Shown: positions 17,545 to 40,794, counted from the first letter of the stretch. The stretch: DNA of 64,000 nt from an uncultured Clostridia bacterium (GCA_947623865.1 CANQIC010000002.1:21041-85040), one strand, 5' to 3'. The notes: generated by a model not told the origin, from the sequence alone. Numbers and translations are program-made.

Positions 17545-18985
17545 ATGAGAAAAACTAAAATAGTATGTACTTTAGGACCAGCTACAGATGATCCCAAAGT
17601 ACTAAAAGAATTAATGAAAGCAGGTATGAATGTTGGAAGAATTAATTTTTCACATGGGAACTATAAAGATCAAGCAGGAAGAATCAATTTATTTAAATCA
17701 GTAAGAGATGAATTAGGTTTACCTATTCCACTTTTGCTGGATACACAAGGACCTGAGATAAGAATTGGAAAATTTAAAGAGTCAAAAGTATTGTTAAAAG
17801 AAGGAAAGACATTTACTTTATTAAATGAAGATGAATTAGGCGATGAAACAAAAGTATCTATAACATATAAAGATTTATATAAAGATGTAGAAAAAGGAAA
17901 AACAATCTTAATAAATGATGGAACAATAGAGCTAAAAGTAAAAGAAATAAAAGGTAAAGATATTGTTTGTGAGATTATACAAGGGGGATATCTAACAAAC
18001 AGAAAAAGTATAAATGTTCCAGATTTAATTTTAAATTTACCAAGTATAACTGACAAAGATATAGATGATATTAAATATGGTATAGCAGCAGGATTTGATT
18101 ATATTGCAGCATCTTTTGTTAGAAAACCACAAGATGTTTTAGCAATAAAAGAAGTTTTAAAAGAAAATGGTGGAGAAGATATAAAGGTTATATCTAAAAT
18201 TGAAAATAGAGAAGGAATAAATAATTTTGACGAAATTCTAGATGTATCAGATGGTATTATGGTAGCAAGAGGAGATTTGGGTGTTGAAATTCCAATGGAG
18301 GAGGTTCCAATATATCAAAAACAATTTATTAAAAAGACATATGCACAAGGAAAGCCAGTAATTACAGCGACTCAAATGTTAGAATCAATGATAACTAACT
18401 CAAAACCAACAAGGGCAGAGGTAAGTGATATAGCAAATGCAATATACGATGGTAGTAGTGCAATAATGCTTTCTCGGAGAAACTGCAACAGGGGAATATC
18501 CAGTAGAATGCGTAAAAGTAATGAATAAAGTTGCAATTGCAATAGAGAAATCTTTAAAGTACTGGAAGAGATTTAAAAATAGAAATTATAAATTAGAAAA
18601 ATTTGATTATAATTTCAATATGAATTATTCAGTATGTATGTCTGCTGCAAATATTAAAGCAAAAGCAATAGTTGCATATACAAACACAGGTAGTACATCA
18701 AGAACTGTATCTAGTTTTGGACCAGAGTGTCCAATATTTGCAATAACAGAAAATGAAAGAACATATAGACAACAGGGATTATGTTGGAATATAATACCTA
18801 AACTATTCCCGCACCAAGATACTATAGATAAACTAGTTTATTTAGGTATAGACACTTTAAAAAAAGAAGGATTTTTAGAAAAAGGTGATACAGTTGTGAT
18901 AGCAGGAGGAGCAAAAGCAGTTTCTGATTTGTCAATAGATGAAGCAAGTATAAATAATTCAATGGGGGGAATTGTTAAAATATAA
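17545..18985 (+). CDS. pyk: pyruvate kinase; frame broken by extra C at 18475
   Basis: ORFs 17545-18528 and 18521-18985. Deleting C in tctCggaga restores ...[32 protein letters not shown]..., which matches the conserved PK motif. Confidence 0.85.
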
Positions 18986-19144: not shown

Positions 19145-19516
19145 ATGTATAGAAATTATATGCAAAGAAGATCTTGTTCTTCATGTAATTGCTCATCTAA
19201 TAATAATTCATGTAATAAAAAAGATGAAGATATTATAGATGATACTTGCGAATGCGTACAAAGCGTAATGGATACTAGTGATTCGTGTGAATGTGGATTT
19301 GATGAAGAAGATAAATTGTTTCCTAGTAATCCTATGTTTGCTCAAAGCTATGTGCCATGGCAAACAATGGATAAAACATTTACTCCATGTGTAGGATTAA
19401 AAATGGGAACAATATTCCCAGAGTTAGTTAGTCCATATATGCCTGGACAATCGATGGAAGAAATTGAATATATTAGAAATGCAAATAAAATAGGAAAGGG
19501 GTGTAACAAATGTTAG
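19145..19516 (+). CDS. cotJA: spore coat associated protein CotJA-like
   Basis: Cys-rich N-terminus, then AQSYVPWQ...GTIFPELVSPY, which is the CotJA signature. Confidence 0.65.
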   Translation: MYRNYMQRRSCSSCNCSSNNNSCNKKDEDIIDDTCECVQSVMDTSDSCECGFDEEDKLFPSNPMFAQSYVPWQTMDKTFTPCVGLKMGTIFPELVSPYMPGQSMEEIEYIRNANKIGKGCNKC

Positions 19517-19848
19517 ACAATGATAAATGTGAATGTATGGAACGTAAACACAAAAATTCAAACAATGATAATTCATGTCCTAGAGATATGAGAAGACAAG
19601 AAATGATTGATCAAATAAAAAGTTTAGATTTTGCTATTATCGAACTTGGTCTATATTTGGATACACATCCTGAAGACCAAAGGGCATTATGCATGCATAG
19701 AGAATATTGCAAACAAGTAAAAGAATTAAAAGACAAATATCAAAAAATGTATGGACCACTTACTATATTCTATCCATGCAATAAATGGAGATGGTTAGAA
19801 GAGCCATGGGCTACGTTCAAAATGGAGGTAAAAATGATGATAGATTAA
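19510..19848 (+). CDS. cotJB: spore coat protein CotJB
   Basis: LDFAIIELGLYLDTHPEDQRAL...YGPLT matches the CotJB family core. Confidence 0.8.
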   Translation: MLDNDKCECMERKHKNSNNDNSCPRDMRRQEMIDQIKSLDFAIIELGLYLDTHPEDQRALCMHREYCKQVKELKDKYQKMYGPLTIFYPCNKWRWLEEPWATFKMEVKMMID

Positions 19849-19984
19849 AATTTGCAGAGAGATTGCTCTATGGAGAAATAACTGCGTTAATTGAAAAAAA
19901 TGAAAAGGCATATTAAATTTTAAAAAATATGTCTTTTTTTAGCGTTTTATGTAGAAACTTTATTCTTGCAAAAAAAACAGGTAA

Positions 19985-22900
19985 ATGATAGAATTAAAAA
20001 AAATATATTATAAGGAGAAAGATTTGGAAAAAGAATTGTATTGTATTACAGATGCACAAAAAACAATATGGAATACGGAAAAGTTTTATAAAGATAATCC
20101 TATAGTAAATATTTCTGGTACTTGTACAATTAATTGCAAAGTGAATTTTGAGTTATTAGAAAAAGCAATTAATCAAGTGGTGATGAATAATGATGCTCTT
20201 AGAACAAAAATAACAATAAAAAATGGAGAACCAGTGCAATATTTTGAGGATTATAATAAATTTAAAGTTAAAACTTATAATGTATTAAATGAAAAAGATC
20301 TTGAGCAATTAATAAAAAAGAATTTAAATAAACCATTATCATATAAAGAAGATAGTATGGTTAAGTTTATTATGTTTAAATTTCCAGATGGCACAGGAGG
20401 GGTAAATATAGTTATTAATCATATGATTTCAGATGCATGGTCTGCTATTTTAATATCAAGTGAGGTAGCAGGAACTTATGATAAACTTCTAAATAATGAA
20501 AAAGATACGGACAATATAGAAAGCTCATATATAAACTATATTGAATCTGAAAAAGAGTATAAGAATAGTGAAAAGTATAAAAAAGATAAGCTGTTTTGGG
20601 AGAGATATTTATCAGATTTACCAGAAGAAGTTGCTTCACTAAAACAAAAAGAGGAGATAAATACTTTAGATACTAAAGCAGAAAGAAAAGAAATATTAAT
20701 AAATAAATCAAATGCCGAAAAAATAAATAAGTATTGTAAGGATAATAAAATATCACAATATGTTTTCTTTTTAGGAATATATGCAATTTATTTATCAAAA
20801 TTTACATCTAATAAAAATATTATAATTAATACACCTATATTAAACAGAAAAAATATTAAAGAAAAAAATACAATAGGGATGTTTGTAAATTCATTACCTT
20901 TAAAAATAAATATAGATAGTAAAAAGACAATTCAAGAATTTTTTAATAAAATAGCACAGGACTCTTTGTCAATTTTTAGACATCAAAGATACTCTATATT
21001 TGAAATTTTAAATTATGTAAGAGAAAAGAATAAAAATAATTCAAGTATTTATGATATGGTATTTTCATACCAAAATGCAGTAAGTAAACCAACAACAAAT
21101 AATTTATCATATACATCAAAATGGTATTTTAATGGAAATATTACAGAAACAATGAATATACATGTTTCTGACTTGAATTTAAGTGGCGAATTTTATATTT
21201 ATTACGATTATAAAATTAGTCAACTATCTGATAAGGATATAATTAGAATGCACGAGAGAATTCTAAATATAATAGATCAAATTTTAGAAAACAATGATAA
21301 CAAATTAGAAGAAATAAGCATTTTAAGTAATAATGATATAAAGGAATTAAAGGAGTTAAACAATACAGGTAATATAGAGAAAAACGATAAAACTGTAAAC
21401 ACAATAATTGATGAAATATGCAAAGAATATAGTAATAATATTGCTATGAAATGTAAAAACGTAGAAATAACCTACAAAGTATTTTATGATAAAGTTAATT
21501 CATTGGCAGCATTTTTAAGAAAAAAGGGTGTAAAGCAAAATGTGCCTGTTGCAATTATGCTTGATAAAAGTATAGAGATGATAGTTGCAATGTTTGGAAT
21601 TATAAGAGCAGGTGGTTATTATATTCCAATATTACCAGATGAAGAACAAAAAAGAATAGATTATATAATATCAGATAGCAAACCAGTTTGTATTATAACA
21701 CAAAATAATTATAAATATAAAATAAAAGATGTTGAAATTATAGATATTTTTAATGAGCAATTTGCTCAGGAAAATGTAAAATCAATTAATAGACCAAATG
21801 ATGCTTTATATATGATTTATACTTCTGGGTCAACAGGAAATCCAAAAGGTACACAAGTAATGCACAAAAATGTTTGTGGGTTAATTGAGTCAATGAAATC
21901 AGATAAAACTTTAATACCAACAAGTAATGATATTTCTATGTCATTATTAAAATATTCATTTGATGCAAGCGGTATAGATATATATTCTTCTATACTTTCT
22001 GGGGGAAAATTATTATTAATAGATAAGGAAAACGAATTAAATCCACAAATAATAGTAAAAATAATGGAAAAAGAAAAAGTTACTAGAAGTTTTTTAATTC
22101 CTAAATGGGTTGAACAAATTGCTATAGAAGATCAAAGACAAGAAACAGATTTAAGCATGCTTAAAATACTAGGAACTGGAGGAGAAACTTTAAAACCTAA
22201 TACAGTTGAACACCTATTTACAAAATATCCAAAGCTAAAAATTTTAAATCTATATGGACCAACAGAAACAACAATGTTTACAACATATAAGGTACAAAGC
22301 GAAAATGAGTTTAAAGAAAATAACACATCAATAGGAAAGCCTATAAAACTTTCTAGATGTTTAATTTTAAACGAAGAAAATAATATATTACCACCAAAAG
22401 CAAAAGGTGAGCTTGTAATTTATGAAGATGACAGTTCTATAAAAAATATATCTAAAGGGTACTGGAATTTAGAAGAAGAAACTAAAAAAAGATTTATTAA
22501 TATATATAATCCAATAGTAGAAAAGAATGTTAGGATATATAAAACAGGAGATATAGTTAAATTAAACGAAAAATTAGATATAGAATACATTGGCAGAACT
22601 GATGATATGGTAAAAGTAAATGGTAGCTATTTAGTTGCTCTAAATGAAATTGAAAACATTATATATAGAATAATAAACAAACAAAATAGGGTATCGGTAG
22701 TAGCTGTTCCTCAAAATAATACAAAAATAATAGTAGCCTTTATAGAAGGAATAAAAAAGGAAGAGGTAAAGGGAATAGAAAAATATATAAATAAAAATAT
22801 TACTTTTTATATGAGACCCAAAAAAGTATTTGCTAAAGACGCTTTTCCAATAAATAATTCTGGCAAAATTGATAAAAAACTTCTTAAAGGAATTGCTATA

Positions 22901-24298
22901 GAAGAACTAAAAGCCATTAATAAAAAAATAGTAGAACCTAAAAAACAAACTGAACAGATTATATACAATATAATAAAATCAAATACTAATATTGAAGATT
23001 TTTCTATTAAAGATGATTTTATAAATGATTTAGGAATAGATTCATTAACAATATCTACAATTTTTTCTGAATTAGGCTTTTATAAACTTAAATTACAAGA
23101 TTTATATACATATTCAACTGTAGAAGACTTAGCAAAATTTATTGACACAGGTAGCAATGAAAAAAAAATTATAACATTTAGAGATGTAGAAGTAAAAAAT
23201 GATAGCAAGGAGTTTAATATATCTAATGTATTACTTACTGGTGCAACAGGATTTTTAGGAATACATTTACTTAAAGAATTACTATTAGAAAAGAAAGTAA
23301 AAAATATATATTGTATTATAAGAGACAAAGAATTTAAAACAGGAAATGAAAGATTAAAAGAGAGAATAGACTTTTATTTTGGAAAAAGAAATAAAGAAAT
23401 AAACAGTTTATTAAACAAAAAGGTAATAGTTTTAAATGGAAATATTACTAAAAATAATTTAGGATTAGATAATAACGAGTATATAGAATTAAGAAAAAAG
23501 ATTACCACAGTTATTAATTGCGGTGCAAATGTTAGGCATTATTGTAAACTAGAAGAACTTATAAAAGATAATGTGGATAGTGTAAAAAATATAATGGAGT
23601 TTTGCAAAAATAACATATATCTTGCACATATATCTACTTTATCAATCGCGGGATTTAAAAATGAGAAAACATTAAGCAAAGTATTTGATGAAAATACATT
23701 TTATATAAAACAAGACTTTAATAATAATCCATATCTTATAAGTAAATGTATGGCAGAACAATTACTTTTAGAAAGCAATATGTCAAATATAAAAATATTT
23801 AGACTTGGAAACATTATGCCGAGAACAAGTGATGGAAAATTCCAAATAAACTATAATAAAAATGCATTTATAAATGCATTTAGAAATATTATTATTTCTA
23901 AAAAAATTCCAGAGGAGATTATGGATACAATGATAGAATTTAGCCCTGTGGACGAATGTGCTAATTCTATAATTAAAATTATAAAAAGTGATTCTAATTC
24001 TAAAGTATTTCATATAGTAAGTGATAAGTTTATAACAATAAAAGAGCTATTTTATATTTTAAATAAGTTGTGCTATAATATCGACATAGTACCAATAAAT
24101 GATTTTATAAATGAATTAGATAAATATGACGAAATAGGAAAGCAGTATATTAAAGAATATATAATACAAAACAATATAAATGAATACTCAACCCAAAGTA
24201 CTATAAAGTTACTAAAAAAGAAGCATTTTAGATGGAGCAATATAGATAAAAAATATATAAAAAAGTTAACTAATTTAATAGACCAGAATAGGTGGTAG
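19985..24298 (+). CDS. single-module NRPS: condensation, adenylation, thiolation and terminal reductase domains
   Basis: 1437 aa; A-domain cores LYMIYTSGSTGNPKG and YKTGDIV; PCP GIDSL; C-terminal LLTGATGFLG NAD(P)-binding thioester-reductase fold. Confidence 0.8.
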   Translation: MIELKKIYYKEKDLEKELYCITDAQKTIWNTEKFYKDNPIVNISGTCTINCKVNFELLEKAINQVVMNNDALRTKITIKNGEPVQYFEDYNKFKVKTYNVLNEKDLEQLIKKNLNKPLSYKEDSMVKFIMFKFPDGTGGVNIVINHMISDAWSAILISSEVAGTYDKLLNNEKDTDNIESSYINYIESEKEYKNSEKYKKDKLFWERYLSDLPEEVASLKQKEEINTLDTKAERKEILINKSNAEKINKYCKDNKISQYVFFLGIYAIYLSKFTSNKNIIINTPILNRKNIKEKNTIGMFVNSLPLKINIDSKKTIQEFFNKIAQDSLSIFRHQRYSIFEILNYVREKNKNNSSIYDMVFSYQNAVSKPTTNNLSYTSKWYFNGNITETMNIHVSDLNLSGEFYIYYDYKISQLSDKDIIRMHERILNIIDQILENNDNKLEEISILSNNDIKELKELNNTGNIEKNDKTVNTIIDEICKEYSNNIAMKCKNVEITYKVFYDKVNSLAAFLRKKGVKQNVPVAIMLDKSIEMIVAMFGIIRAGGYYIPILPDEEQKRIDYIISDSKPVCIITQNNYKYKIKDVEIIDIFNEQFAQENVKSINRPNDALYMIYTSGSTGNPKGTQVMHKNVCGLIESMKSDKTLIPTSNDISMSLLKYSFDASGIDIYSSILSGGKLLLIDKENELNPQIIVKIMEKEKVTRSFLIPKWVEQIAIEDQRQETDLSMLKILGTGGETLKPNTVEHLFTKYPKLKILNLYGPTETTMFTTYKVQSENEFKENNTSIGKPIKLSRCLILNEENNILPPKAKGELVIYEDDSSIKNISKGYWNLEEETKKRFINIYNPIVEKNVRIYKTGDIVKLNEKLDIEYIGRTDDMVKVNGSYLVALNEIENIIYRIINKQNRVSVVAVPQNNTKIIVAFIEGIKKEEVKGIEKYINKNITFYMRPKKVFAKDAFPINNSGKIDKKLLKGIAIEELKAINKKIVEPKKQTEQIIYNIIKSNTNIEDFSIKDDFINDLGIDSLTISTIFSELGFYKLKLQDLYTYSTVEDLAKFIDTGSNEKKIITFRDVEVKNDSKEFNISNVLLTGATGFLGIHLLKELLLEKKVKNIYCIIRDKEFKTGNERLKERIDFYFGKRNKEINSLLNKKVIVLNGNITKNNLGLDNNEYIELRKKITTVINCGANVRHYCKLEELIKDNVDSVKNIMEFCKNNIYLAHISTLSIAGFKNEKTLSKVFDENTFYIKQDFNNNPYLISKCMAEQLLLESNMSNIKIFRLGNIMPRTSDGKFQINYNKNAFINAFRNIIISKKIPEEIMDTMIEFSPVDECANSIIKIIKSDSNSKVFHIVSDKFITIKELFYILNKLCYNIDIVPINDFINELDKYDEIGKQYIKEYIIQNNINEYSTQSTIKLLKKKHFRWSNIDKKYIKKLTNLIDQNRW

Positions 24299-24301
24299 CA
24301 A

Positions 24302-26276
24302 ATGGATAATAAAGAAAACCATGTAAAAAATTTAAAAAAATCTAAAATTAAATTTAATATAACTATTGTTTTAATAGACTTAATAACAGTTATTCTTACA
24401 TATTATATTATGCCAATTGTACAAAGCTTTCCACCTTTATCTGAAGATTTTGGCTTTCAAGAAAAGGTACAGGTATTAACTCACGTTCAGCAATACACAA
24501 TAGTCTTTATATTAGGTATTACTATCCATTTAACTTCTTTTAGTATTATAATGAGAAATATAAAAAAATATGTAAAAGAATATTCAAGCAACAAAGAAAT
24601 TTCTGATGAAGAAATTTTAGACATTAGAAAAGAATGCCAAAACATACCGTATAAAGTACTATTAGTACAGATGACATTGTTTATAAGTATAGGAATAATA
24701 TTTAATCTAATAATGCTAGTTAAATTTTTTACGATTGTAAAATTCACGTTAATGATTGTTGCTATTACTTCCATAGTATCACTTTTAACATTTATAACTA
24801 CACAAAGATATTTAAGTAAAATTTTAATTTCTACATACGATGTTACATTAACATACGAAAAGAACTTGGGATATAGAATAAGCAATATTAGAAGTTTGAT
24901 TATGCAAACAATTCCTTTTATTGCTGTAGTTTTAGTAATATTATCTTTAATAGGATATTCAAAGGCAATAGAACAAAAAGGACTAGCAAGTGCAAATTAT
25001 TATAAGGTATATTTAGCAAATCTTGCATTAGATGCAGAAAAAATTAATAAAAATAATTTAATAAAGGTATTAAATGAAATACCACTGAATAATGGAGAAG
25101 ATTCATATTTTATTATAAGTCCATACGAAAAAGAAAGATATAATTCAAAACAAGATAAGCCTATAACAGATTTTGCTTTAACCTATAGAGATTATTTTTA
25201 TGATGATTTTCAAGAGGGAATGTTATATGAAGAATTTGGATCTGATGAACAAATATATGCTAAAAAAGTTTTAGATTACAATGGTAATAGTTGGTATATA
25301 GGATTTAAATTTAGCATGGTTGATGAAGAATTATTGTTATATTATTTTGCAATAATATTATCATTAACATTAGTATCCCTAATAATTCTATATATTTGGG
25401 CAAAAAATATATCAAAAAATACTATAAGAATATCAGAGAATTTAAAAGAGATATTAGAAACAAATAAAATAAACAAAAACAATATACTTCCAATAATGTC
25501 AAATGACGAATTAGGAGACTTATCTTATTACTATAATAAAATACAAGAAAAGTTAATTAGTCAACAAGATATAATAAGTATACAATCAAAATTTTCTGCT
25601 ATAGGAGAAGTAGCAGCAGGAATGGCACATGATATTAATAGTCCAGCATCAGCTATAGAAGGAACAATAAATTTATTATATGACTTTAAAGTAGAATCTG
25701 ACGAAGAAGAATACAAACTTTTATTAGATAATATGAAAATAGCAATAGATAAGATACTAAAATTAGTTAATAATGCAAGAGAACAATTTAGAAATCATGA
25801 TAATTTAGATAAAAAGAGATTTACATTAAACGAACTTCTAATGAGTGTGAAGGTTGCAGAAGAACAAGCAATAATAAAAGAAAGATGCACAATTAGAATA
25901 AATATTGATAATGAAATAAGTATATACGGTATAAAAAGTAAATTATATCAAGTAATAGTTAATATAGTTAGAAATGCACTAAATGCATATAAAGATAATA
26001 ACTTGCAGGGCGAAATATTTATACAAGCAAAAGAAGAAAAAAGTGATATTATAATAGAAATAAAAGATACAGCAGGAGGAATTCCAGAAGAAGTAAAAGA
26101 TGAATTGTTTAGAAAAATATTAACCACAAGAGGTACAAAAGGAACTGGACTACGGACTATATTTGGCTGCTAATATTATAGAAACAGATTTTGCAGGTAA
26201 AATATATTTTGAAACTGTACAAAATAAAGGAACTACTTTTTATATAAAAATACCAAAAAACAAGGGGGAAAATTAG
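24302..26276 (+). CDS. membrane sensor histidine kinase; frame broken by extra C at 26153
   Basis: multi-TM N-terminus; H-box AAGMAHDINSP. Deleting C in ctaCggact restores GTGLGLYLAANIIETDFAGKIYFETVQNKGTTFYIKIP, i.e. the G2 box and C-terminus. Confidence 0.75.
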
Positions 26277-27278
26277 ATGGAAAAAGCAAATAAGGTAATG
26301 ATTATTGATGATGAACAAACTTTTATTGTGCCATTACAAATTGGATTAAAAAGAATGGAAATAGAGGTTGTTTCATTTACAGATCCAGAAGAAGCAATAG
26401 AATATTTAAAAAATAACAAAGTAAATGTTCTATTAACAGATTATCACATGGAACCTAATATTAATGGAGATGAAGTTATTCATAGAATAAGAGAATTTAA
26501 TAAAGATATCATAATATATCTCCAAACAGGATATGCTGAAAAGTTACCTGCAGAAGAGATGCTTGAAAAATATGATATTCAAGGATATATAGACAAAGGA
26601 GAAGGTCAAGAAAAGAATCTTAGATTAATTAAGTCTGCATTAAAGCATGCACAAACTTTAGAATTAGTGAAACAACAAGAAAAGAAATTAGATGCTCAAG
26701 AATATAGAAATCAGTTTTTAGGTAAATTCCTAAATATGCTTATGGGAGAAATAGGAGAAAAAAGTTTTGCAATGGCAGGAAATTTAATGTCTTTAAAGGA
26801 ATTAGAAGAAGAAATTTCTCCGAATGTAAGAGAAATATATAATAAAAATGTAAATAATATAAAAACATCAATTGAAAAATTAAATCAATTAATAAAATCG
26901 TTAGAGTTAGAAAAAGAAAACATAACCATATCTGAATTAAGAGATACTCTAATTAGTTTATTTGAGGTTACTTTTACAATAAAAGATATAAAATTAAATT
27001 TTAGAAATAATACTGATAATGATTATTTAATAATTCCATCTGATTCAAAAGTATTGGTATATATATTAGTAGATATAATAGAGTATTTAATAAAAAAACA
27101 AGAAAAGCAAATTGATATATTTTGTGAAAAAGAAGATAATAGCATAGTAATAAAGGTATGCAATGAAATTGAAAACGATGAATTATTTAATAAAATTGAG
27201 AAGTTAGCTATGTTTGATGAAGATATAGAAATTAAAAATAAATATAATCAAATTAAAGTAATTAGTAAATGCATATAA
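26277..27278 (+). CDS. response regulator with atypical C-terminal domain
   Basis: receiver domain (IIDDE...LLTDYHM...K); 200-aa C-terminal domain with no obvious DNA-binding HTH. Confidence 0.65.
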   Translation: MEKANKVMIIDDEQTFIVPLQIGLKRMEIEVVSFTDPEEAIEYLKNNKVNVLLTDYHMEPNINGDEVIHRIREFNKDIIIYLQTGYAEKLPAEEMLEKYDIQGYIDKGEGQEKNLRLIKSALKHAQTLELVKQQEKKLDAQEYRNQFLGKFLNMLMGEIGEKSFAMAGNLMSLKELEEEISPNVREIYNKNVNNIKTSIEKLNQLIKSLELEKENITISELRDTLISLFEVTFTIKDIKLNFRNNTDNDYLIIPSDSKVLVYILVDIIEYLIKKQEKQIDIFCEKEDNSIVIKVCNEIENDELFNKIEKLAMFDEDIEIKNKYNQIKVISKCI

Positions 27279-27508
27279 TAATTACGAACATCAAAAAATT
27301 AGGAATGATAAAAACCTGCTTACAGATTTATATACAAAACAGATAAAGAAAAATCAATTTAATAAAGATATTTAAAATTCAAGGAGTAAATCTTTGAATT
27401 TTATTTTTCTCAACTTTAATATATTTTAAATATAGAATAAATATTATTTATGATATATTGAATCATTAAAATATTAAAAAATAATATACATTGTATAGAG
27501 GTGATTAG

Positions 27509-27647
27509 TTTGGAATCTAATATTGAAGAACTTTATACAAAAGATGGCAAAGAATTATTTGAATTAATTCAAGAATGGATAAATGAAAATAATTCTTTTT
27601 TATATTATAAAAGTAGAGAGAAAGATGTAAAATATCGTTGTAGATAA
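27509..27647 (+). CDS. small ORF (46 aa) upstream of recombinase 1
   Basis: TTG start behind GAGGTGA Shine-Dalgarno; the same arrangement recurs before recombinases 2 and 3. Confidence 0.25.
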
Positions 27648-27682
27648 GTAGTTATTTATATAACTTGAGATAGGAGGTAAGA

Positions 27683-29281
27683 ATGTATGCGTTATATAAT
27701 AACTATTTCAATGTATTAGATGATATAGCATGGAAAGTAGCAATATATGTAAGATTGTCAAGAGAGGATGAAAAAGATGATAACTATAAAGGACAATCAG
27801 AAAGTATTGAAAACCAAATAAATTATTTAAAAACTATTGTAAAAGAAAAAAAGTGGGTTTTAGTAGATATATATAGAGATGATGGTTATACTGGAACAAA
27901 TTTTGATAGACCAGATTTTCAAAGAATGATTCAAGATATAGAACTTGGAAAAATAAATTTAGTTATAACTAAAGATTTATCAAGACTTGGAAGAGATTAT
28001 ATAGAAACAGGTAGATATGTAGAAAAATACTTTCCATCAAAAAATGTACGATACATTGCAGTCAATGATTACATTGATACATTTGATAAGAGAAATTCTA
28101 ATAATGATATAACACCTTTCAAATCAGTTATTAATGATATGTATGCAAAAGATATATCCAACAAAGTAAGAAGTGCTATTCTTACAAAAGCAACAGAGGG
28201 AGAATGTATAAAAGCATTCTTGCCTTATGGATATAAAAAGGATATATATGACAAGAACAATATATTAATAGATGAAAATGTTGCTGATAATGTAGTTTTG
28301 ATTTTTAACTTATATAAAAACGGAAAAAGTAAAACTCAAATTGCTAATCACTTGAATGAATTAGGAATAAAAACACCTCTGAAATACAAACATGAAACTA
28401 CAAATTACTTTAATCCTAATGAAACTTATACGTATAAATGGAATAGTACAATTATAAATAAAATATTGAGAGATAGAATATATGTAGGAGATTTGGTACA
28501 GTTAAAATATACAAAAATAAATTATAAGATTAAAAAAATGATTAAAGTACCAAAAGAACAACATGTTATAATATTAAATCACCATCCAGCAATTATAGAA
28601 AGAAATGTTTTTGAAACAGTACAAGAAATGTTAGACAGAAAAACAAATGAATGGAATTATTCAGGAAGAAAAAGACATTTATTATCAGGATTAGTCTTTT
28701 GTCAATGTGGAAGTAGAATCACTTATAATAAAAATCATGGCAAATATTTTAGATGTATATGTTCTAGTTATAAAAAGTATGGAAATCAGTTTTGTTCTAG
28801 TGTACATTTAAGAGAAGATGAATTAATAAGATTAGTAACAAATTCCTTAAAAGAAAATATATCTAAATATCTAAATATGGATAGTTTATCATATCAAAAT
28901 CAAAATATAGATAATGAATTAAAAAAAAATATATTAAACTTAAATAAAAAGAAAGAAGAATTAAATAAAATAATTAGTAATTTATATGAGGATAGACTAT
29001 CTGGGGTAATATCTCAAGACACTTTTACAGATTTAATAAAGAATTATGAAACTCAAAAAAAAGAATATGATAAAAAAATACAATTATTTCAAAGTGAAGA
29101 AAATAAAGCATTTTTACAGGATAATATAAATAATGAATTATTAAAAGAAACTATGAAAGAACTATTAACTTTTAATGATATAAATGAAGAAAATAGAAGT
29201 ATTGTGTTTAAATTAATAGATAAAATTATTATATACGATAGAGATATAAGTATAAAATATAAATTTAATATACCAGAATAA
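27683..29281 (+). CDS. large serine recombinase (SpoIVCA/CisA-like)
   Basis: N-terminal resolvase domain VAIYVRLSRED...; recombinase domain and Cys-rich zinc-ribbon; coiled-coil C-terminus. Confidence 0.85.
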   Translation: MYALYNNYFNVLDDIAWKVAIYVRLSREDEKDDNYKGQSESIENQINYLKTIVKEKKWVLVDIYRDDGYTGTNFDRPDFQRMIQDIELGKINLVITKDLSRLGRDYIETGRYVEKYFPSKNVRYIAVNDYIDTFDKRNSNNDITPFKSVINDMYAKDISNKVRSAILTKATEGECIKAFLPYGYKKDIYDKNNILIDENVADNVVLIFNLYKNGKSKTQIANHLNELGIKTPLKYKHETTNYFNPNETYTYKWNSTIINKILRDRIYVGDLVQLKYTKINYKIKKMIKVPKEQHVIILNHHPAIIERNVFETVQEMLDRKTNEWNYSGRKRHLLSGLVFCQCGSRITYNKNHGKYFRCICSSYKKYGNQFCSSVHLREDELIRLVTNSLKENISKYLNMDSLSYQNQNIDNELKKNILNLNKKKEELNKIISNLYEDRLSGVISQDTFTDLIKNYETQKKEYDKKIQLFQSEENKAFLQDNINNELLKETMKELLTFNDINEENRSIVFKLIDKIIIYDRDISIKYKFNIPE

Positions 29282-29349
29282 AGTATAAAAATGAGTTATA
29301 ATTCTTCCAAAATGAACGGTGGATGGCCATGGGAAAGGGGGAATTATTA

Positions 29350-29539
29350 ATGTGGACCTATAATAAGGTATTAGAATATCCAATAAATATAAAATGTCCA
29401 AATCCAAGACTTGCAAAATTTATAATATCACAATATGGTGGACCTGATGGAGAACTTGCAGCATCACTTAGATATCTATCGCAAAGATTTGGAATGCCAG
29501 ATCAAAAAGCAAAAGCTATATTAAATGATATAGGAACAG
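29350..29539 (+). CDS. cotJC: CotJC-like manganese catalase, segment 1 of 3
   Basis: MWTYNKVLEYPINIKCPNPRLAKFIISQYGGPDGELAASLRYLSQRF...DIGTE matches the Mn-catalase/CotJC N-terminus, then diverges into element sequence. Confidence 0.8.
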
Positions 29540-29922
29540 AAGATTATGTTCCAAAAAGGTTATCAATTAATTATAATTAAAGAGATATAAGTATTTTTTA
29601 ACTTAACTATATAATCTTATATCTCTTTATATTTAATTATTTTCATGAATTTTCTTTAAATAAAAACTTATTAATATATTTTTTTATATAAAAAAGTACT
29701 CCACCTCATATTTGACTCTTTCGACAATCCGTTTTAAGGCATTTTTATTATTTTATAGTATAATTTTATATCTTTGCGAATTAAAATGGATTAGAAACAA
29801 TCATCGCAAAGATTCAAATATCTATTAACGTTTTTGAATTTTTGTGTTAGAATGTAATGGTAATAAAAAAAATGGGAAAAATCCCATTTCTTTATATGAT
29901 TTTTTAATATCTTGTATTATAT

Positions 29923-31041
29923 TTACATTTTATCCATATACTCATCTACAATTTTTTTAGCTGTCTCCAAACTTAATCCCGCTTCATCTCTAACAGCTTT
30001 TATTATAGCTATTTTGTCATATCCATATAGTTGTATTTTATCCTCTATATTATACATATCATTATTTTCAATTTCTATATGTTCTTTACCATTTTCTAAA
30101 TCATCTTCATTATTTATAGTGTTTTGACTCTCCAATATTTTCTTTTTGCTTATTTCAAATTCTTCTTGTGTTATTGCTCCACTATCTTTTAATTTTGATA
30201 ATCTTTCTAATTGCTCAATAAAATCGCCATTATTTTGTACCATTTTTTTTACTCCTTCATTATTATTATCATTTATTATTGACATTACTGTTGCATACAC
30301 ATTATTAGCAAAATTCATTGCTCGTTTATATTCAATACTATCTTTTTTCGTTTCATTTTTTATTAATTTAATAGTGTATAATGATTTTGAAATGTCATTT
30401 GTTATAATTCTTAATTGTAAACTATTAGTTATATTCTGACTTTTTCTTGTATTCGCTCCAACTATTGCTCCAACTCCTCCTGCTAATGCTCCACCAACAA
30501 TAGCTCTGCCAACTCCACCTTTCATTATAGTATTGTTATCTTCTAATATTTCACAATCTATAATATCTGTAAATTTTAAAATATTTACTTTATTAGTAGG
30601 ATACATATCACAAATTGCAATTCTTTTATTTTGCATATCTATTCTAAACTGTTTTTTAGATTCAATTAAGCTAACTGCAATATTTTTAGATGTCTCGAAA
30701 TTTTTATCTTTTAATAATTTATCTATTTCGTTTATATTATTTTCCGTTTTTTCATTTTCTGTTCCTAATGACATAAAAAACATTACGAAAAGTGCTATTA
30801 CAATTACTGCTATACGAACTACCGCAAAAGGTTTTCCTAAAACTATATTCATAATCATAATGCATATTATTACAATACAAATTATTGTTATTACAGGATT
30901 GTAATTATTTTTTGCAATATTTGACTTGTTTTTTAATCGTTCTACTGTTTCAAACTCATTTATTTGATAATTACAATGAGGACAATTCTTTGCCTTATCA
31001 GAAACATCTCCATTGCATTTAGGACATTTAATAATTGCCAT
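29923..31041 (-). CDS. zinc-ribbon / TM / SHOCT / L7-L12-C-like domain protein
   Basis: KCPKCNGDV...CPHCNY ribbon; one TM; LERLSKLKDSGAITQEEFEISKK (SHOCT-like); C-terminal IKAVRDEAGLSLETAKKIVDE (ribosomal L7/L12 CTD-like). Confidence 0.5.
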   Translation of the reverse strand: MAIIKCPKCNGDVSDKAKNCPHCNYQINEFETVERLKNKSNIAKNNYNPVITIICIVIICIMIMNIVLGKPFAVVRIAVIVIALFVMFFMSLGTENEKTENNINEIDKLLKDKNFETSKNIAVSLIESKKQFRIDMQNKRIAICDMYPTNKVNILKFTDIIDCEILEDNNTIMKGGVGRAIVGGALAGGVGAIVGANTRKSQNITNSLQLRIITNDISKSLYTIKLIKNETKKDSIEYKRAMNFANNVYATVMSIINDNNNEGVKKMVQNNGDFIEQLERLSKLKDSGAITQEEFEISKKKILESQNTINNEDDLENGKEHIEIENNDMYNIEDKIQLYGYDKIAIIKAVRDEAGLSLETAKKIVDEYMDKM

Positions 31042-31057
31042 TTTAAAACCTCCAATT

Positions 31058-31369
31058 TTATTTTCTCACATTATTTTCTATATTTTGTAATTTTTGTATA
31101 ACTTCTGCTATTGCTAATAGCAATAAGGCTACTAATTCAAACATACAGTACACTAAAATTCCAACAAGTACACAGCCTAAATTTTCAATAAATTGAAATG
31201 TTAATAAAGCACATATTATTGCAATAATAATTCCAAAAATAGTAACACTTTTACTCCATTGTTTTAGATTAATTGCAATTGGATTTGAATAAAGTGCCTC
31301 TCCACAATGAGGGCATACACTAGCTTTATTTGATATTTCTTTGCCACAATTACTACATTTAATTATCAT
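31058..31369 (-). CDS. zinc-ribbon membrane protein
   Basis: KCSNCGKEI...CPHCGE followed by 2 TM. Confidence 0.45.
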   Translation of the reverse strand: MIIKCSNCGKEISNKASVCPHCGEALYSNPIAINLKQWSKSVTIFGIIIAIICALLTFQFIENLGCVLVGILVYCMFELVALLLLAIAEVIQKLQNIENNVRK

Positions 31370-31378
31370 ATAAACCTC

Positions 31379-31814
31379 CTAAGAAAAATGTATTATAATT
31401 GCAAATATTAATGGAAATAAATGAAACATAATAAGTAATATTGTAGATATCATTATAACTATTTTACCTATCTTTTTATTTCCCTTTTTTAGCAAAATAC
31501 CTATCCAAATTCCTATCACACAAAAAGGAGCTGTCCAAAATCTAAATCTATTTAGGAAATATGCTATTGTTCCTGTGTTTTGTGCTCCATACATTTCAAT
31601 ATATCTTTGTAGTTCCTCATTCTGCACCCCCATAATTAAAGAAGGAGCTGAATTTAAAAAAACTAAAACAGACAATATAGCTCCAAATATATAGAATTTA
31701 GAATTTTTATATCCAACAATATTTATTTTAAAATTTTTGTATCCGACAATGAGGACATACACTCAAGTTGCTATCATATTGTTTTTTACATTCTTTACAA
31801 ATAATTTGTTCCAT
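31379..31814 (-). CDS. zinc-ribbon membrane protein; frame broken by extra C (plus-strand ccg 31743-31745)
   Basis: MEQIICKECKKQYDSNLSVCPHC then, after skipping C of CGG, GYKNFKINIVGYKN... joins the listed 127-aa ORF; paralog of the two upstream genes. Confidence 0.45.
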
Positions 31815-31828
31815 TTTTTCCACCATTC

Positions 31829-32098
31829 TCATTTATTTTTTATATCTTGCAATAACTGTATGATTTCTCCTAAAGCATAAGTAAAAATTCCTGAAACTAT
31901 ACTTAAAATAATAATTAAAATAGCATAGTCGACTTTATCTATCAAATAAAATCCATACATACTAAAAATTATTGTAAAAATAACAGCTAAAACTTTTATT
32001 AACATTGCAACAGTATTATTTTTAGCATTTGAATTATTATTTTTCTTATAGTTATTATTTGTTATACCAATTGCATTTAAAACATTTTTATCTTGCAT
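31829..32098 (-). CDS. small membrane protein
   Basis: 89 aa, 2 TM. Confidence 0.3.
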   Translation of the reverse strand: MQDKNVLNAIGITNNNYKKNNNSNAKNNTVAMLIKVLAVIFTIIFSMYGFYLIDKVDYAILIIILSIVSGIFTYALGEIIQLLQDIKNK

Positions 32099-32632
32099 TT
32101 ATTTTTCCTCCTTCAAGAGAATATAATAGTTGAAAAAGTACGGTGTAATTAATAGGTATGAAAAATATTGTATGTAAAGGTAATTTATTTCTCCAGCTGT
32201 ATTATGCTGATTAATTTGGATTATATTAAAACTAATGTAAATTAATATAGCTAATAAAAATATTATATTATTAATAAAAGTATTTTTCTTAAATAAAATA
32301 TTAATAAAATAAAGAGAGATTAAGAAAAAACATATAAAGCCAATAAAATTTTTTGCCGTTAATAATAATAAATCCCATATTATTAAACTAATGAATAATA
32401 TCATATTAGTTACGGTTAAATTTCCCTTATTAAAGAAAATTCTTATCGAAATTAGTATAAAATATATTATCATTCCTATTTTTAATATATTATCAATTAC
32501 AAACGTGCTTATTATAATTTCTTCAAACTCACTATTATACATGTAATATCCATAAAACATTAATACTACACCTATAATTCCTAACAAAACTGTAATTTTA
32601 GGATTAAGCAAAGTTTCTTTTATTTTTTCCAT
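32099..32632 (-). CDS. polytopic membrane protein
   Basis: 177 aa, 5-6 TM. Confidence 0.35.
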   Translation of the reverse strand: MEKIKETLLNPKITVLLGIIGVVLMFYGYYMYNSEFEEIIISTFVIDNILKIGMIIYFILISIRIFFNKGNLTVTNMILFISLIIWDLLLLTAKNFIGFICFFLISLYFINILFKKNTFINNIIFLLAILIYISFNIIQINQHNTAGEINYLYIQYFSYLLITPYFFNYYILLKEEK

Positions 32633-32665
32633 TTCATCACCACCTTTTACTTTAATAATCCGCTT

Positions 32666-32920
32666 CTAACCAGTATTTTTATTGCTTGAACAATTATAAT
32701 TACTACACCATTTACAATAAGTGTCATAAAAATAATAATATGTATTTTTACAGTTTTTCTCTGTTGCTCCGTCAATATTATTTATTTCTATTTGAATATA
32801 TTGTTTGGCTTCGTATAAAAAGTTATTTTCTAATAAATTTCGTATATTTTTTAGTATTTCCAACAGTTTTAATTCTTCCATTATTTTTTCCTTTTTCGAT
32901 ATTTTTCTACATTTTATCAT
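32666..32920 (-). CDS. hypothetical protein
   Basis: 84 aa ORF with Cys-rich tail. Confidence 0.3.
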   Translation of the reverse strand: MIKCRKISKKEKIMEELKLLEILKNIRNLLENNFLYEAKQYIQIEINNIDGATEKNCKNTYYYFYDTYCKWCSNYNCSSNKNTG

Positions 32921-33000
32921 TCTTTGTTGGCACGTGCAAGTGCTACTTTTATAAGTGTCAGTATTATAAAATCCTTTTAGTAAGGGAAAGAAGGTATTTT

Positions 33001-33216
33001 ATGATAATTTTAAATGTAGAAAAAATATTAAAAGAGCAAGGTAAATCGAAAGAATGGTTATGCAATGAAATGGATATATCTCACTATAATCTTAATAAGG
33101 CAATAAAAGGTAATGCAAAATCCATATCATACAAATACCTACAGTCTTTTTGCAAAGCTCTAAACTGCTCTTTTAATGAATTGATGACTATTGTTGAAGA
33201 TGAAAAGGAAACCTAA
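33001..33216 (+). CDS. XRE-family helix-turn-helix transcriptional regulator
   Basis: 71 aa; LKEQGKSKEWLCNEMDISHYNLNKAIKG HTH. Confidence 0.6.
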   Translation: MIILNVEKILKEQGKSKEWLCNEMDISHYNLNKAIKGNAKSISYKYLQSFCKALNCSFNELMTIVEDEKET

Positions 33217-33240
33217 TTACTAAATATTTTTTTTAATTTT

Positions 33241-33462
33241 TTATCTATCTTCTTGTTCATTTTTATTGTTTTGCTTCCGATTTTCCCCATATTTTTTTAT
33301 ACATTTGTTTTGTGAATTTATCATTTTATTTATTTTAGGACTTGTAGCAAGTTCTAAATTTTTTTGATAAATATCTAATGTTTTTATTCCCGCTTCTTTT
33401 CCGTTCTTTAAAGATTTTTTTATATCCTCAAGTATTGAAATTGCAACTTCTTTTTCTACCAT
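33241..33462 (-). CDS. hypothetical protein
   Basis: 73 aa; contains an in-frame CGG near the C-terminus, so the true end is ambiguous. Confidence 0.3.
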   Translation of the reverse strand: MVEKEVAISILEDIKKSLKNGKEAGIKTLDIYQKNLELATSPKINKMINSQNKCIKKYGENRKQNNKNEQEDR

Positions 33463-33604
33463 CTTAAACCTCGTTTTCGCTTATATTATAGCAAAAATGA
33501 AAATATTTCAATAGTTTTGGTTTATTTTATGATTTATTTATTAAACTATACATATTTTAAATCAATTTATAAAATACTAATAAATGTAAAAAATGGTTTA
33601 AAAG

Positions 33605-33805
33605 GTGGTGGAAATAATGGCTTTTAAAATTCCAAGAGGCATTAATAAAGTTCCATTTTCTATTAGAGTTGATGAGAATGATTTTGAAATCATAGATAAA
33701 TTATCAAAGAAAAATAAAAAATCATATAATTATATTGTTAATTGCATGATAAAGTATGCTATAGAAAACATGGATATGAAAGATATAAAAAACATAGAAA
33801 TATGA
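33605..33805 (+). CDS. small ribbon-helix-helix-like regulator
   Basis: 66 aa; KVPFSIRVDENDFEIIDKL pattern. Confidence 0.35.
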   Translation: MVEIMAFKIPRGINKVPFSIRVDENDFEIIDKLSKKNKKSYNYIVNCMIKYAIENMDMKDIKNIEI

Positions 33806-33924
33806 TTTTGAATAGCTGACAAAACTAGCCTCTTACTCATATTAAACAAAAAATCTATTTAAACACTTAAAGTAGGACGGGCTATAAAAAAGGACTAGCT
33901 TTAAAACTAGCCCATTTTTTATTT

Positions 33925-34180
33925 TTAAAAATCTAAAATGATTTTTTGATTATCAATTATAAAGGTTAATGTATTAATTTCAATATCTGTCACATAGTCT
34001 AAACTTAATATAAATTCTTCATTTTTTGTGTCAGTTATAATTAAACTATGATTACTTATTAAAATCTTCGCATTATGTATTGCAAAATTTGTTATTATAG
34101 CTCCGTTTCATTATCACAGTAACATCTTTATCTAAAAAATTATTAAATAGTTTTTCTTCTAACATTTCTAAATCTTTCAT
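33925..34180 (-). CDS. hypothetical protein (about 84 aa); frame broken by extra C (plus ccg 34103-34105)
   Basis: MKDLEMLEEKLFNNFLDKDVTVIMK then, skipping C of CGG, GAIITNFAIHNAKILISNHSLIITDTKNEEF... Confidence 0.35.
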
Positions 34181-34195
34181 ACTTTTATTTCTCCT

Positions 34196-34758
34196 TTAAA
34201 TTTCAAAATCATTATAAGCCTCGTCAATCTCGTCTTGTTCTATTCCAATATAGCGAAGTGTTATTGAAGGGCTAGAATGGTTAAATAATTTCTGTAACAT
34301 TGCAATATCTTTTGATTTCTTATAAAAGTGATAACCGAAATGTTTTTCTTAATGTATGTGTTCCAATTTCTTCTAATCCCATCTTTGAAGCTACTTCATT
34401 TAATAGTCTATACGCTTGTATACGTGTAATAGGATTATTTATTCCTTTTCTGCTAGTAAATAAATAATCTGTCATTTTCATATTTTTTGTATATTCTAAT
34501 AGCTCTCTTGATACTGTATCATTTATTCTAAATCTTTTTTCTTTATTTGTTTTTTGTTCTTTTATGCAAATATGAGATTTTATACTTCTATCTTCGTTTA
34601 AGACATCTAAAGCTTTTAATTTTATTATATCTGATATGCGAAGTCCTGTATTTATACCTACTATAAATAATAAGTAATCTCTTGTTCCGCTTCTTTCTTA
34701 ATTCAACTTTCATTTCATTTATTTTATTTTTATCTCTTATAGGCTGTACGATTTTCAT
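34196..34758 (-). CDS. small tyrosine recombinase (phage-integrase family, about 186 aa); two extra-C frame breaks
   Basis: Minus-strand translation gives ...GINTGLRISDIIKLK...GTHTLRKTFGYHFYKK...LGH (R..H-x-x-R..Y catalytic residues) once the C's at plus ccg 34687-34689 and 34334-34336 are skipped. Confidence 0.6.
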
Positions 34759-35095
34759 TTTAAAATACCTCCTTATTTTCTATTTTTGTTACATTAAAAG
34801 TAACACTATAATTCAATATGATACATTCAAATTGTTTTATTTGAGAAAAAGTTACTAAAAAGTCTTATTTTTCAATACATCTTGCTTTTTTATTGAATGT
34901 AACAAAATAAGTATTGTGTTACATTCACTCATTATGAAAATATTTTTTTGCATAAAAAATACTTTTCAATGATATTTCTAAATAATTATTGAAAAGTAAA
35001 GCAAATTCATCTATAATAAAAATAGAATGACTTTTCAATAAGTTATTCGGTTTGTGATATAGTGTGCGACGCCAATCAAAGCACTATATCACTTT

Positions 35096-35305
35096 TTATT
35101 TTTCTTGTTTAGTTATAGTTATTTTTCCTTTTTGATATTTTACATTCAATTCGTCATCTTTATTAAATCCTGTTGTTTCAATTCCAGATTTTTTTAATGA
35201 TATTCTATAACCTTTTACAAATGCTGTATTATCCTTTCTATATTCTTTAATTTCTTGTAATCTAGCCATCTTCACTCCTTTCTTAACTTCATCCATATTA
35301 TACAA
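35096..35305 (-). CDS. small AbrB/MazE-like DNA-binding protein
   Basis: 69 aa; swapped-hairpin-like pattern; tentative. Confidence 0.3.
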   Translation of the reverse strand: MYNMDEVKKGVKMARLQEIKEYRKDNTAFVKGYRISLKKSGIETTGFNKDDELNVKYQKGKITITKQEK

Positions 35306-35446
35306 CGTGTGCTACGTTGTGTCAACATTTTATTTGTTTTCTTTTTTCTGAAGCATAAATATATTGAAATAGCTACTTTTTATACATTATGATATTATAA
35401 AAATTTCCTCGAATTCTTATACCAAATTAACTATATCTTTTATATA

Positions 35447-37591: not shown

Positions 37592-37604
37592 AGAGGTGTA
37601 TCTT

Positions 37605-37745: not shown

Positions 37746-37782
37746 TTTTCTTCAAAAGCATATATAATAGCACATAGTCAAA

Positions 37783-39372: not shown

Positions 39373-39434
39373 AGTAATATCAATAGTTGGAATTATAATT
39401 TTTATTTTGACTATTGATAACTTTAATGGAACAG

Positions 39435-40727: not shown

Positions 40728-40794
40728 ATATATAATATTCGTGGGTACAGCGAACTATAACAAATGTACCATCTTGTAAGAAACTTTCAAGATT

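Follow-up and report, generated by a model that had tools for sequence, protein, structure and literature searches.

The locus described here raises the question of what separates cotJB from cotJC, two genes which are directly adjacent in close relatives, and whether that separation may be reversed. In Bacillus subtilis, the cotJ operon is sigma-E dependent and mother-cell specific. Within a 64,000-nucleotide (nt) stretch of DNA from an uncultured Clostridia bacterium (GCA_947623865.1 CANQIC010000002.1:21041-85040; G+C content of approximately 25%), which is referred to as the window and along which all coordinates are counted, a first-pass annotation had proposed an intervening element between the two genes. 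Such an insert, here designated E1, is present; the intergenic position did not hold, as E1 sits inside cotJB at codon W100, with the last seven codons of the gene removed. It is considered probable that E1 represents a non-phage element which was inserted into cotJB by a large serine recombinase (LSR) and which would be excised in the sporulating mother cell.

The evidence begins with the two junctions. The host part of cotJB (codons 1 to 100; 19510 to 19809, plus strand, as are all features of E1 and of the cotJ genes given below) is recognized by the Pfam CotJB profile (E = 4e-24, profile positions 2 to 73 of 76) and is 100% identical by tblastn to residues 1 to 100 of CotJB, while the open reading frame (ORF) of the integrated state, cotJB′ (19510 to 19848), follows the profile until position 73 of 76 and diverges beyond it. 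The remainder of this ORF (19810 to 19848) is element encoded and translates to ATFKMEVKMMID and a stop, a tail which is identical in alleles P0017 and P0014; in the integrated state, PWERGNY is consequently replaced at the C terminus of CotJB by 12 foreign residues. The detached end of cotJB, consisting of seven codons and a stop (PWERGNY), lies at positions 29327 to 29350 and is identical to the end of intact alleles, including P0010 and P0011, and 9.5 kb is interposed between the cotJ promoter and cotJC. The left junction reads GAAGAGCCATGG followed by GCTACG, and the right junction reads GGTGGATGG followed by CCATGGGAAAGGGGGAATTATTAATG; the tetranucleotide ATGG (19806 to 19809 and 29323 to 29326) is common to the left and right attachment sites (attL and attR) and the reconstructed empty site (attB). 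From crossover to crossover, E1 measures 9,517 bp. Joining of the two junctions in silico yields a reading frame ending in EEPW-PWERGNY, the stop codon of which overlaps the cotJC start codon (TAATG).

This predicted product corresponds to what is found in relatives. Six CotJB alleles of 106 to 107 amino acids (aa), which belong to the 90%-identity cluster of the window CotJB, all end in EEPWPWERGNY, and the joined cotJB end is the same as that of alleles P0010 and P0011 and, at the DNA level, of contigs L003 and L006. As the first-pass annotation had supposed, cotJB and cotJC are normally contiguous: cotJA, cotJB, and cotJC are uninterrupted in the same-species contigs L003, L005, and L006, whose junction DNA reads ...GAAGAGCCATGGCCATGGGAAAGGGGGAATTATTAATGTGG and in which the cotJB stop overlaps the cotJC ATG as TAATG. 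A cotJC gene of 201 aa is present in L003 and L006, where the contig reaches far enough. Across 2.3 kb of the left flank, the conspecific L003 and the window share 98.6% identity (blastn); beyond it, the alignment skips from 19809 to 29323, from 29543 to 39428, and from 39651 to 44092/46028. The presence of E1 is, as such, polymorphic among strains of one species. Two of the features expected of an intervening element of a sporulation gene, namely, insertion within coding sequence and exact in-frame restoration on paper, were found. Furthermore, the cotJB and cotJC pieces contain neither stop codons nor frameshifts, and the encoded proteins are 96 to 100% identical to the matching parts of uninterrupted alleles, from which it follows that selection on the interrupted gene continues.

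The window derives from a metagenome assembly and contains nearby repeats (the duplicated cotJC 3′ end described below), both of which might favor the view that misassembly or misbinning of the metagenome-assembled genome (MAG) produced a chimera. This explanation is scarcely credible, as independent assemblies from other samples reproduce E1 at 99.8 to 100% identity, with both junctions in L007 and L103 and the right part with attR in L008, and the same architecture recurs in at least 25 other genomes; a fourth short independent contig, L102, represents part of E1.

The last gene of E1 (27683 to 29281), as the first-pass annotation had it, encodes a 532-aa recombinase, the stop codon of which is separated from the cotJC ATG at 29350 by 68 nt. 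Its product harbors the Pfam domains Resolvase (PF00239; E = 5e-22), Recombinase (PF07508), and Zn_ribbon_recom (PF13408), and its PHROG match is to integrase (E = 5e-98). In a comparison with 10 homologues (54 to 87% identity), residues R24, S26, D98, R101, and R104 are invariant, as are the zinc-ribbon residues Cys340, Cys342, Cys360, and Cys371. A coiled coil is predicted across residues 409 to 496, where the AlphaFold2 model places helices at 409 to 440 and 445 to 496 with a predicted local distance difference test (pLDDT) score of 80 to 90; the whole model reaches a pLDDT of only 64 and was used solely for placing these helices. With its catalytic, recombinase, zinc-ribbon, and coiled-coil regions all recognizable, the protein is by sequence an LSR. 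Its nearest named relatives are TnpX (N-terminal domain, E = 2.5e-27) and TndX (34% identity).

While homologues of this recombinase number in the thousands, its close relatives form a distinct clade. When one genome per species was scanned and the best 80 genome matches were considered, 25 species-level genomes were found to encode a recombinase of 65 to 83% identity, the next best match being no more than 44% identical. These are MAGs of uncultured Clostridia or Bacilli from rabbit, mouse, goat, sheep, and human guts. CotJA, CotJB, and CotJC were mapped on all loci and, at each locus of this clade for which flanking sequence was available, the recombinase gene comes last, codon 1 of cotJC lies 50 to 170 bp downstream, and cotJB lies 3.3 to 10.5 kb upstream and ends at residue 100 or 101. 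The same cotJB site is occupied in L009 to L014 (Logan and ENA assemblies; 87 to 90% identity), and a 70% relative on an IMG/VR contig, L104, again resides in a chromosomal cotJB-cotJC locus, where a second element is present in cotJC. All recovered recombinases of at least 65% identity accordingly occupy the cotJB site, i.e., those of at least 25 species-level MAGs, of contigs with 87 to 100% identity, and of one viral-catalogue contig. This single address of all close homologues, together with the exact CotJB C terminus of relatives obtained upon in silico excision, bears out the intervening-element interpretation of the first-pass annotation, and the arrangement which that annotation held would speak against it, namely, NRPS (nonribosomal peptide synthetase) and two-component genes at the cotJB site without a recombinase, was seen in none of the relatives. 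Between species, nt identity (blastn) amounts to 87 to 90% in the recombination module and to 79 to 88% in most host flanks, and this higher similarity of the module suggests horizontal spread of the E1 family. A phage or plasmid origin was also considered and rejected, as no recombinase relative above 35% identity was found among 50,697 phage or 72,556 plasmid records and the IMG/VR contig is chromosomal.

The attachment sites could be delineated by comparison of the junctions. In the window, attL (19776 to 19841) comprises the host half-site ...GAAGAGCCA and the element arm GGCTACGTTCAAAATGGAGG about a TG at 19807 to 19808, while attR (29292 to 29357) comprises the element arm TTCTTCCAAAATGAACGGTGGA and the host half-site GCCATGGGAAAGG about a TG at 29324 to 29325. 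In the family alignment, attL consists of host ...GAAGAACCATGG followed by GCTTCGTTCATTTTGGAAG, and attR of TTCCAAAATGAACGnAGGGTGG followed by CCATGGGAA. The circular-form site, attP, was reconstructed from the junctions for 16 family members, in which two arms of approximately 18 bp (consensus CTTCCAAAATGAACGAAG) lie in inverted orientation and flank GG-TG-GG, with dyad symmetry at 10 to 20 of 24 positions and an invariant TG. For the window strain, the reconstructed sites are attB GGTTAGAAGAGCCATGGCCATGGGAAAGGGGG and attP AAAATGAACGGTGGATGGGCTACGTTCAAAATGG; its imperfect inverted arms, TTCCAAAATGAACG...CGTTCAAAATGG, surround TG with symmetry at 13 of 24 positions and agree with the family consensus. 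The reconstructed attB has no such dyad symmetry. Based on this symmetry and on the identity shared between the junctions, we infer that TG (19807-08 and 29324-25) is the crossover dinucleotide. The core that the first-pass annotation could not identify is, therefore, proposed to be this TG within an attP with inverted arms, and the ends of E1 move from 19849 and 29349 to the two TG positions. Short attachment sites, a symmetric attP, and a 2-bp crossover, as derived here from the junctions, are characteristic of LSRs. The conserved CotJB motif EPWPWE is encoded by attB, which accounts for the stability of the site across species. A generic repeat search did not pick up the attachment arms, as they are too short and imperfect. 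As a separate observation, a motif GAGTTATAAT(TC) with a perfect TATAAT, oriented toward cotJC, is located at 29292 to 29303 of the window and is kept 20 to 31 nt inside the right end in nearly all members (L009 to L038, L082, and L104). It could be contacted by the recombinase as an outer site or act as a promoter directed outward; if the latter, reading after excision would cross attP into the cargo.

Immediately 5′ of the recombinase gene lies a small ORF of 45 aa from a TTG start (27510 to 27647; alternative start at 27501). An equivalent ORF of 44 to 48 aa occupies this position in 34 of 34 family sequences (hidden Markov model [HMM] E values of 1e-16 to 1e-25) with the motif ..YTKDGKxLxELIQEWINEN.., while the HMM returned nothing significant elsewhere in 130 loci. 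Pairwise differences at codon positions 1, 2, and 3 amount to 1618, 765, and 2351, respectively, a distribution which fits a gene that is translated. No Pfam, NCBIfam, or PHROG family was matched, no homology to known directionality factors was detected, and homologues had been called as genes in only 4 cases among 5.8 billion database proteins. By its position, its size, and its strict co-occurrence with the recombinase, we infer that the small ORF encodes a candidate recombination directionality factor. The alignment upstream of the small ORF revealed only an AT-rich AATATATAtT motif and a ribosome-binding site, AGAGGTGA. Sigma-E-like matches (TCATTAA-N15-TATACATT) are weak and are not claimed as a promoter, and in a sigma-70 scan promoter-like sites were no commoner than in shuffled sequence.

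What remains constant across the family is, accordingly, limited to the two attachment arms, the right-end recombinase, and the 44- to 48-aa ORF; the cargo between these parts varies. Among other members, the cargo includes an S51 peptidase, a MacB-type ABC transporter, and a dockerin-bearing glycan-binding protein; an extracytoplasmic function (ECF) sigma factor with a DUF4179 anti-sigma-like protein and a helicase-sigma fusion; and transglutaminase-like, leucine-rich repeat (LRR), ToxN, Bro-N, and HTH_36 proteins. One element (L031, 3346 to 11664) carries a DtxR-like repressor together with SufC, SufB, SufD, and SufS, a complete SUF Fe-S operon, and two others (L017 and L038) each carry two class II aminoacyl-tRNA synthetase paralogues. 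Phage structural or conjugation genes were not found in the cargo of family members. Because the clade shares a target site, attachment arms, the small ORF, and a varied cargo of non-phage genes, E1 is proposed to be a site-specific, horizontally spread cotJB-intervening element. Two other classifications of E1 were tried and set aside. Apart from integrase, its only PHROG matches are to generic kinase and receiver families whose function is unknown, which does not support a prophage. A mobilizable or conjugative element is not supported either, as no relaxase or conjugation domains were found in Pfam or NCBIfam searches and all family loci share a single target site; the absence of an origin of transfer (oriT) is not decidable by sequence alone.

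It is, then, envisaged that the small protein would act as a directionality factor in the sporulating mother cell, where the recombinase and the small protein would recombine attL with attR. A circle bearing attP would be released, and the native end of cotJB and its overlap with cotJC, with the attendant translational coupling, would be restored. The forespore would retain E1 and so permit its inheritance.

The cargo of E1 itself agrees with the gene inventory of the first-pass annotation, i.e., an NRPS, a sensor kinase, and a response regulator, followed by the small ORF and the recombinase. The NRPS gene (19985 to 24298, an ORF of 1,437 aa; likely true start TTG at 20024; database gene call P0149 of 1424 aa) encodes a single module with Condensation, AMP-binding, PP-binding, and NAD_binding_4 domains (Pfam). 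Against NCBIfam, the product aligns end to end with MxcG (positions 5 to 1372 of 1442) and with the adenylation-thiolation-reductase (A-T-R) part of AusA, and its terminus matches the thioester reductase model TIGR01746, in these cases below equivalog cutoffs. By its domain order, condensation-adenylation-thiolation-reductase (C-A-T-R), the enzyme is grouped with the reductively releasing NRPSs of gut Clostridia (peptide aldehyde/pyrazinone type) and with MxcG-like enzymes, and its relatives in gut Clostridia comprise C-A-T-R enzymes of 1,420 aa and two-module C-A-T-C-A-T-R enzymes of 2,470 aa. Peptide aldehyde synthesis has been demonstrated for some reductase-terminated NRPSs of this kind from gut Clostridia (PMC12327764). 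The sensor histidine kinase gene (24302 to 26276; Pfam HisKA and HATPase_c) is frameshifted by a 1-nt insertion (CTA-C-GGA, at approximately 26152) after GTGL, so that the ORF ends at 26173 and the ATPase domain is shortened by approximately 40 aa. The missing remainder is legible in another frame through 26275, HATPase_c is matched over positions 3 to 75 of 111 only, and the protein is 57% identical to a 653-aa kinase of L095 as far as GTGL. In the independent contigs L007, L008, and L103, gene calling yields the same truncated protein of 623 aa. The response regulator (26277 to 27278) consists of a receiver domain (Pfam Response_reg, E = 2.7e-15) and approximately 200 unassigned C-terminal residues, with partial NCBIfam matches only. 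The NRPS-kinase-regulator trio recurs as a conserved unit without a recombinase elsewhere, namely, in L096 (10001 to 17602, beside hisS and relA; 52% identity), where the regulator has an HD-type output domain, and in L095 (63%). The two-component pair is probably functionally tied to the NRPS.

Between cotJB′ and the NRPS gene, a short reading frame (19849 to 19917) encodes the tail KFAERLLYGEITAL within KFAERLLYGEITALIEKNEKAY, which ends at a stop. The first-pass annotation had remarked on a faint resemblance of this tail to the RFGEAL region of the manganese catalase C terminus, a likeness which is attributed to chance, as BLASTP gave no alignment with intact CotJC. Instead, 11 of 17 residues are identical to residues 26 to 42 of an HTH_36 protein (E = 6e-6, as a single comparison), which is the first gene product of a related element, L130, whose attL is identical to that of E1. 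The tail is, consequently, read as a putative relic of an HTH_36 gene. A terminator-like hairpin with a T-run was predicted by RNA folding soon after the cotJB′ stop (19902 to 19945; -10.5 kcal/mol, z-score of -3.2 versus shuffles), and no Rfam RNA family was found in the window.

Several points weigh against excision of E1 in the mother cell. No excision product was found: a degenerate attP pattern returned two unrelated GC-rich matches from JGI metagenomes and none from IMG/VR. The empty sites come from strains other than the E1 carrier, and the host is an uncultured MAG for which sporulation is presumed. No sigma-E or sigma-K promoter could be assigned upstream of the small ORF, whose candidate role as a directionality factor is argued from position, size, and co-occurrence, and the kinase frameshift means that part of the cargo is decaying. 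The last of these might be taken further, to the effect that E1 is a fixed, decaying remnant which no longer excises and that the cotJ operon is turning into a pseudogene, a view with which the shrinkage of the HTH_36 gene to a 22-aa relic and the position of the E1 attP arms among the less symmetric of the family (13/24) would agree. Yet both the small ORF and the recombinase retain their full length and every invariant residue, the attachment arms fit the family consensus, cotJA (19145 to 19516) and the cotJB and cotJC pieces are intact, and presence or absence of the element varies within the species. A non-excising remnant is, on this balance, very improbable.

The operon downstream of E1 bears further on the question of excision. 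In the window, cotJC is cut by two additional elements into three pieces, encoding aa 1 to 65 (29350 to 29544; Pfam Mn_catalase profile positions 1 to 66, tblastn 98% to intact CotJC residues 1 to 65), aa 62 to 136 (39428 to 39652), and aa 135 to 201 (44091 to 44291). Element 2 (29544 to 39428, approximately 9.9 kb) interrupts cotJC at aa 65, its LSR gene (37783 to 39372) is the last gene, its attL and attR share GA, and small membrane, zinc-ribbon, and SHOCT proteins make up most of its cargo. Element 3 (39651 to 44092, approximately 4.4 kb) interrupts cotJC at aa 136, with an LSR gene at 42476 to 44068 (TTG start, weak DUF4368 match), the core CAGA, and a 94-aa tyrosine integrase fragment at 41372 to 41656. 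The recombinases of elements 2 and 3 are 24 to 31% identical to that of E1 and to one another. A complete cotJC would, as such, require two more excisions, each presumably performed by its own, unrelated recombinase.

One rival explanation holds that E1 uses the end of cotJB as a safe landing site and excises for transfer or stochastically, without a link to sporulation, in which case carriers would dispense with normal CotJB and CotJC or transcribe cotJC from element promoters. Insertion so close to the cotJB stop codon (last seven codons) resembles that of many damage-limiting elements, the nearest named recombinases, TnpX and TndX, belong to transposons, a different cotJC element in L001 carries a Mob_Pre relaxase, the conserved TATAAT-like motif at the right end points at cotJC, and the search revealed no sporulation promoter, all of which are compatible with that explanation. 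E1 itself, however, has no relaxase, oriT-associated, or conjugation genes. Moreover, because cotJC is split by two further elements, it would be inexpressible without excision, yet its three pieces are 96 to 99% identical to intact cotJC and stop-free, and a single mother-cell operon with five different target sites, all served by separate recombinase clades, is better accommodated by a germline/soma logic than by neutral landing. A sporulation-independent landing site is accordingly judged unlikely, although less so than the remnant, and excision in the mother cell remains the preferred interpretation.

The five sites are cotJB codon 100 and cotJC codons ~35, 65, 104, and 136. Element 2-type recombinases (56 to 70% identity) are present in every fetched locus in which cotJC is cut at aa 65, while the L001 element lies at aa 104 and recombinases of its type (81 to 92% identity) occur where cotJC is cut at aa 104. 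Recombinases which are 38 to 44% identical to that of E1 reside in or next to a cotJC cut at aa 33 to 37 in 10 loci (L041, L043, L044, L047, L051, L054, L056, L042, L048, and L052), the hosts of which include Oscillospiraceae, Ruminococcus, and Acutalibacteraceae, among others; since these relatives are also found at cotJC, the cotJ operon is a widespread target beyond the E1 clade. The elements are independent among relatives, with L002 containing element 3 only (99.4% identity) and L003 containing none. As separate sites pair with separate recombinase clades across relatives, the operon is a multisite hot spot. It is tentatively suggested, as a possibility we rate below an even chance, that the cotJ operon of gut Clostridia serves as a landing pad with at least five sites, each with its own recombinase clade, in which small cassettes persist by virtue of the germline/soma split, their non-phage cargo (an NRPS, tRNA-synthetase paralogues, a SUF operon, ECF sigma factors, or toxin genes) being freely exchangeable. 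Were this true, up to three or four elements would have to leave before one coat protein could be made, and a multi-input gate or a source of spore coat heterogeneity could result. At the aa 136 site, it was also observed that L104 (2866 to 5951) contains an element with two tandem, opposite-strand LSR genes, whose products are just 27 to 30% identical to the recombinase of window element 3, the occupant of the same site.

Excision by an LSR with a small directionality factor is established for skin, SPbeta, gin, and yin, which are cut from mother-cell sporulation genes (PMC5595907, PMC5025042, PMC4191935, PMC10747680), and among these, gin and skin are by our comparison the closest known systems to E1. 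The gin element interrupts gerE of Bacillus cereus ATCC 10987 and is served by the recombinase GirC and the 42-aa directionality factor GirX (PMC5595907). Like E1, it is a small non-phage element in a short mother-cell sporulation gene, with an LSR, a tiny motif-less ORF, and attachment sites in which a short core is flanked by imperfect inverted repeats. E1, in contrast, lies at cotJB codon 100 in uncultured gut Clostridia, encodes one recombinase versus the three of gin, carries an NRPS and a two-component pair as cargo, and has a small ORF unrelated in sequence, and its excision is predicted from the junctions. The skin element in sigK is excised by SpoIVCA in B. subtilis and by CD1231 with the directionality factor CD1234 in Clostridioides difficile (PMC5025042). 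Interruption of a mother-cell gene, an LSR at one end, and a small factor controlling direction are common to skin and, as proposed, to E1, whereas skin is prophage-like and located in a regulatory gene, and E1 is devoid of phage genes and located in the last codons of a gene of a structural coat operon. The yin element in yabG of Clostridium botulinum (PMC10747680) and SPbeta in spsM (PMC4191935) likewise occupy spore envelope genes of Firmicutes, with serine recombinase-mediated excision and strain-variable presence; both are prophages or prophage-like and much larger, and yin is described from one strain, unlike the E1 clade with its at least 25 species-level genomes. In Laceyella sacchari, a skin-like element that receives a passing mention (bioRxiv 10.1101/2022.02.25.481979) targets the same operon by interrupting cotJC. 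That element differs in residing in cotJC, as opposed to cotJB, and in a member of the Bacilli, and the source describes no family, attachment site, or cargo.

The cyanobacterial heterocyst elements in nifD, fdxN, and hupL have their own recombinases (XisA, XisF, and XisC, respectively) and are removed only in the terminally differentiated cell. They resemble the present case in that genes of one operon harbor several elements which are independent of one another and have separate recombinases, and the E1 recombinase matches the XisF model at E = 1e-21, which is below the model cutoff; the phylum, developmental program, and cargo are different. Tn4451 and Tn5397, the sources of TnpX and TndX and hence of the nearest named recombinases, are mobilizable or conjugative with resistance cargo and looser targets, whereas the E1 clade is single-site and without mobilization genes.

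In the literature searched, the interrupted genes are sigK, spsM, spoVFB, spoVR, gerE, and yabG, with single mentions of cotJC (L. sacchari) and spoIIID; neither cotJB as a target nor the E1 recombinase clade and its small ORF were found in any report there. Mechanistically, E1 belongs to a known kind, and the novelty is one of detail and concerns target, family, cargo, and the threefold interruption of a single operon. As such, cotJB would join a short list of sporulation genes known to be interrupted by excisable elements, and the family to which E1 belongs, in at least 25 species-level gut genomes, presents a two-gene minimal module with mapped attP and attB and a candidate directionality factor which is nearly never annotated. 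Elements of this type can bear secondary metabolite and housekeeping-type cargo instead of phage genes, and a single coat operon can host at least three independent elements. The recombinase, small ORF, and attachment sites form a compact and apparently highly specific set that may merit trial as a genome-engineering tool.

Two features of the surroundings of the operon were also observed. The 3′ end of cotJC and its terminator are duplicated (44092 to 44325 and 46031 to 46269; approximately 235 bp each, with 1 nt different), and the second copy begins 12 nt upstream of the element 3 crossover. The chromosome continues from this second copy, based on synteny with L015, and the 1.7 kb between the copies contains an alpha/beta hydrolase gene (44350 to 45159, minus strand), the product of which had no match in an exact-protein lookup, and a 161-aa ORF. 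The duplication looks like a scar left by another insertion that came with a gene-end copy of its own. Upstream of cotJA, the pyruvate kinase gene (17545 to 18985) is split into a 327-aa ORF (PK) and an overlapping 154-aa ORF (PK_C), and the identical split is called in six independent contigs (L001 to L005 and L103), while the more distant L013 has a single 481-aa gene; this may reflect either a conserved frameshift or a truly split gene.

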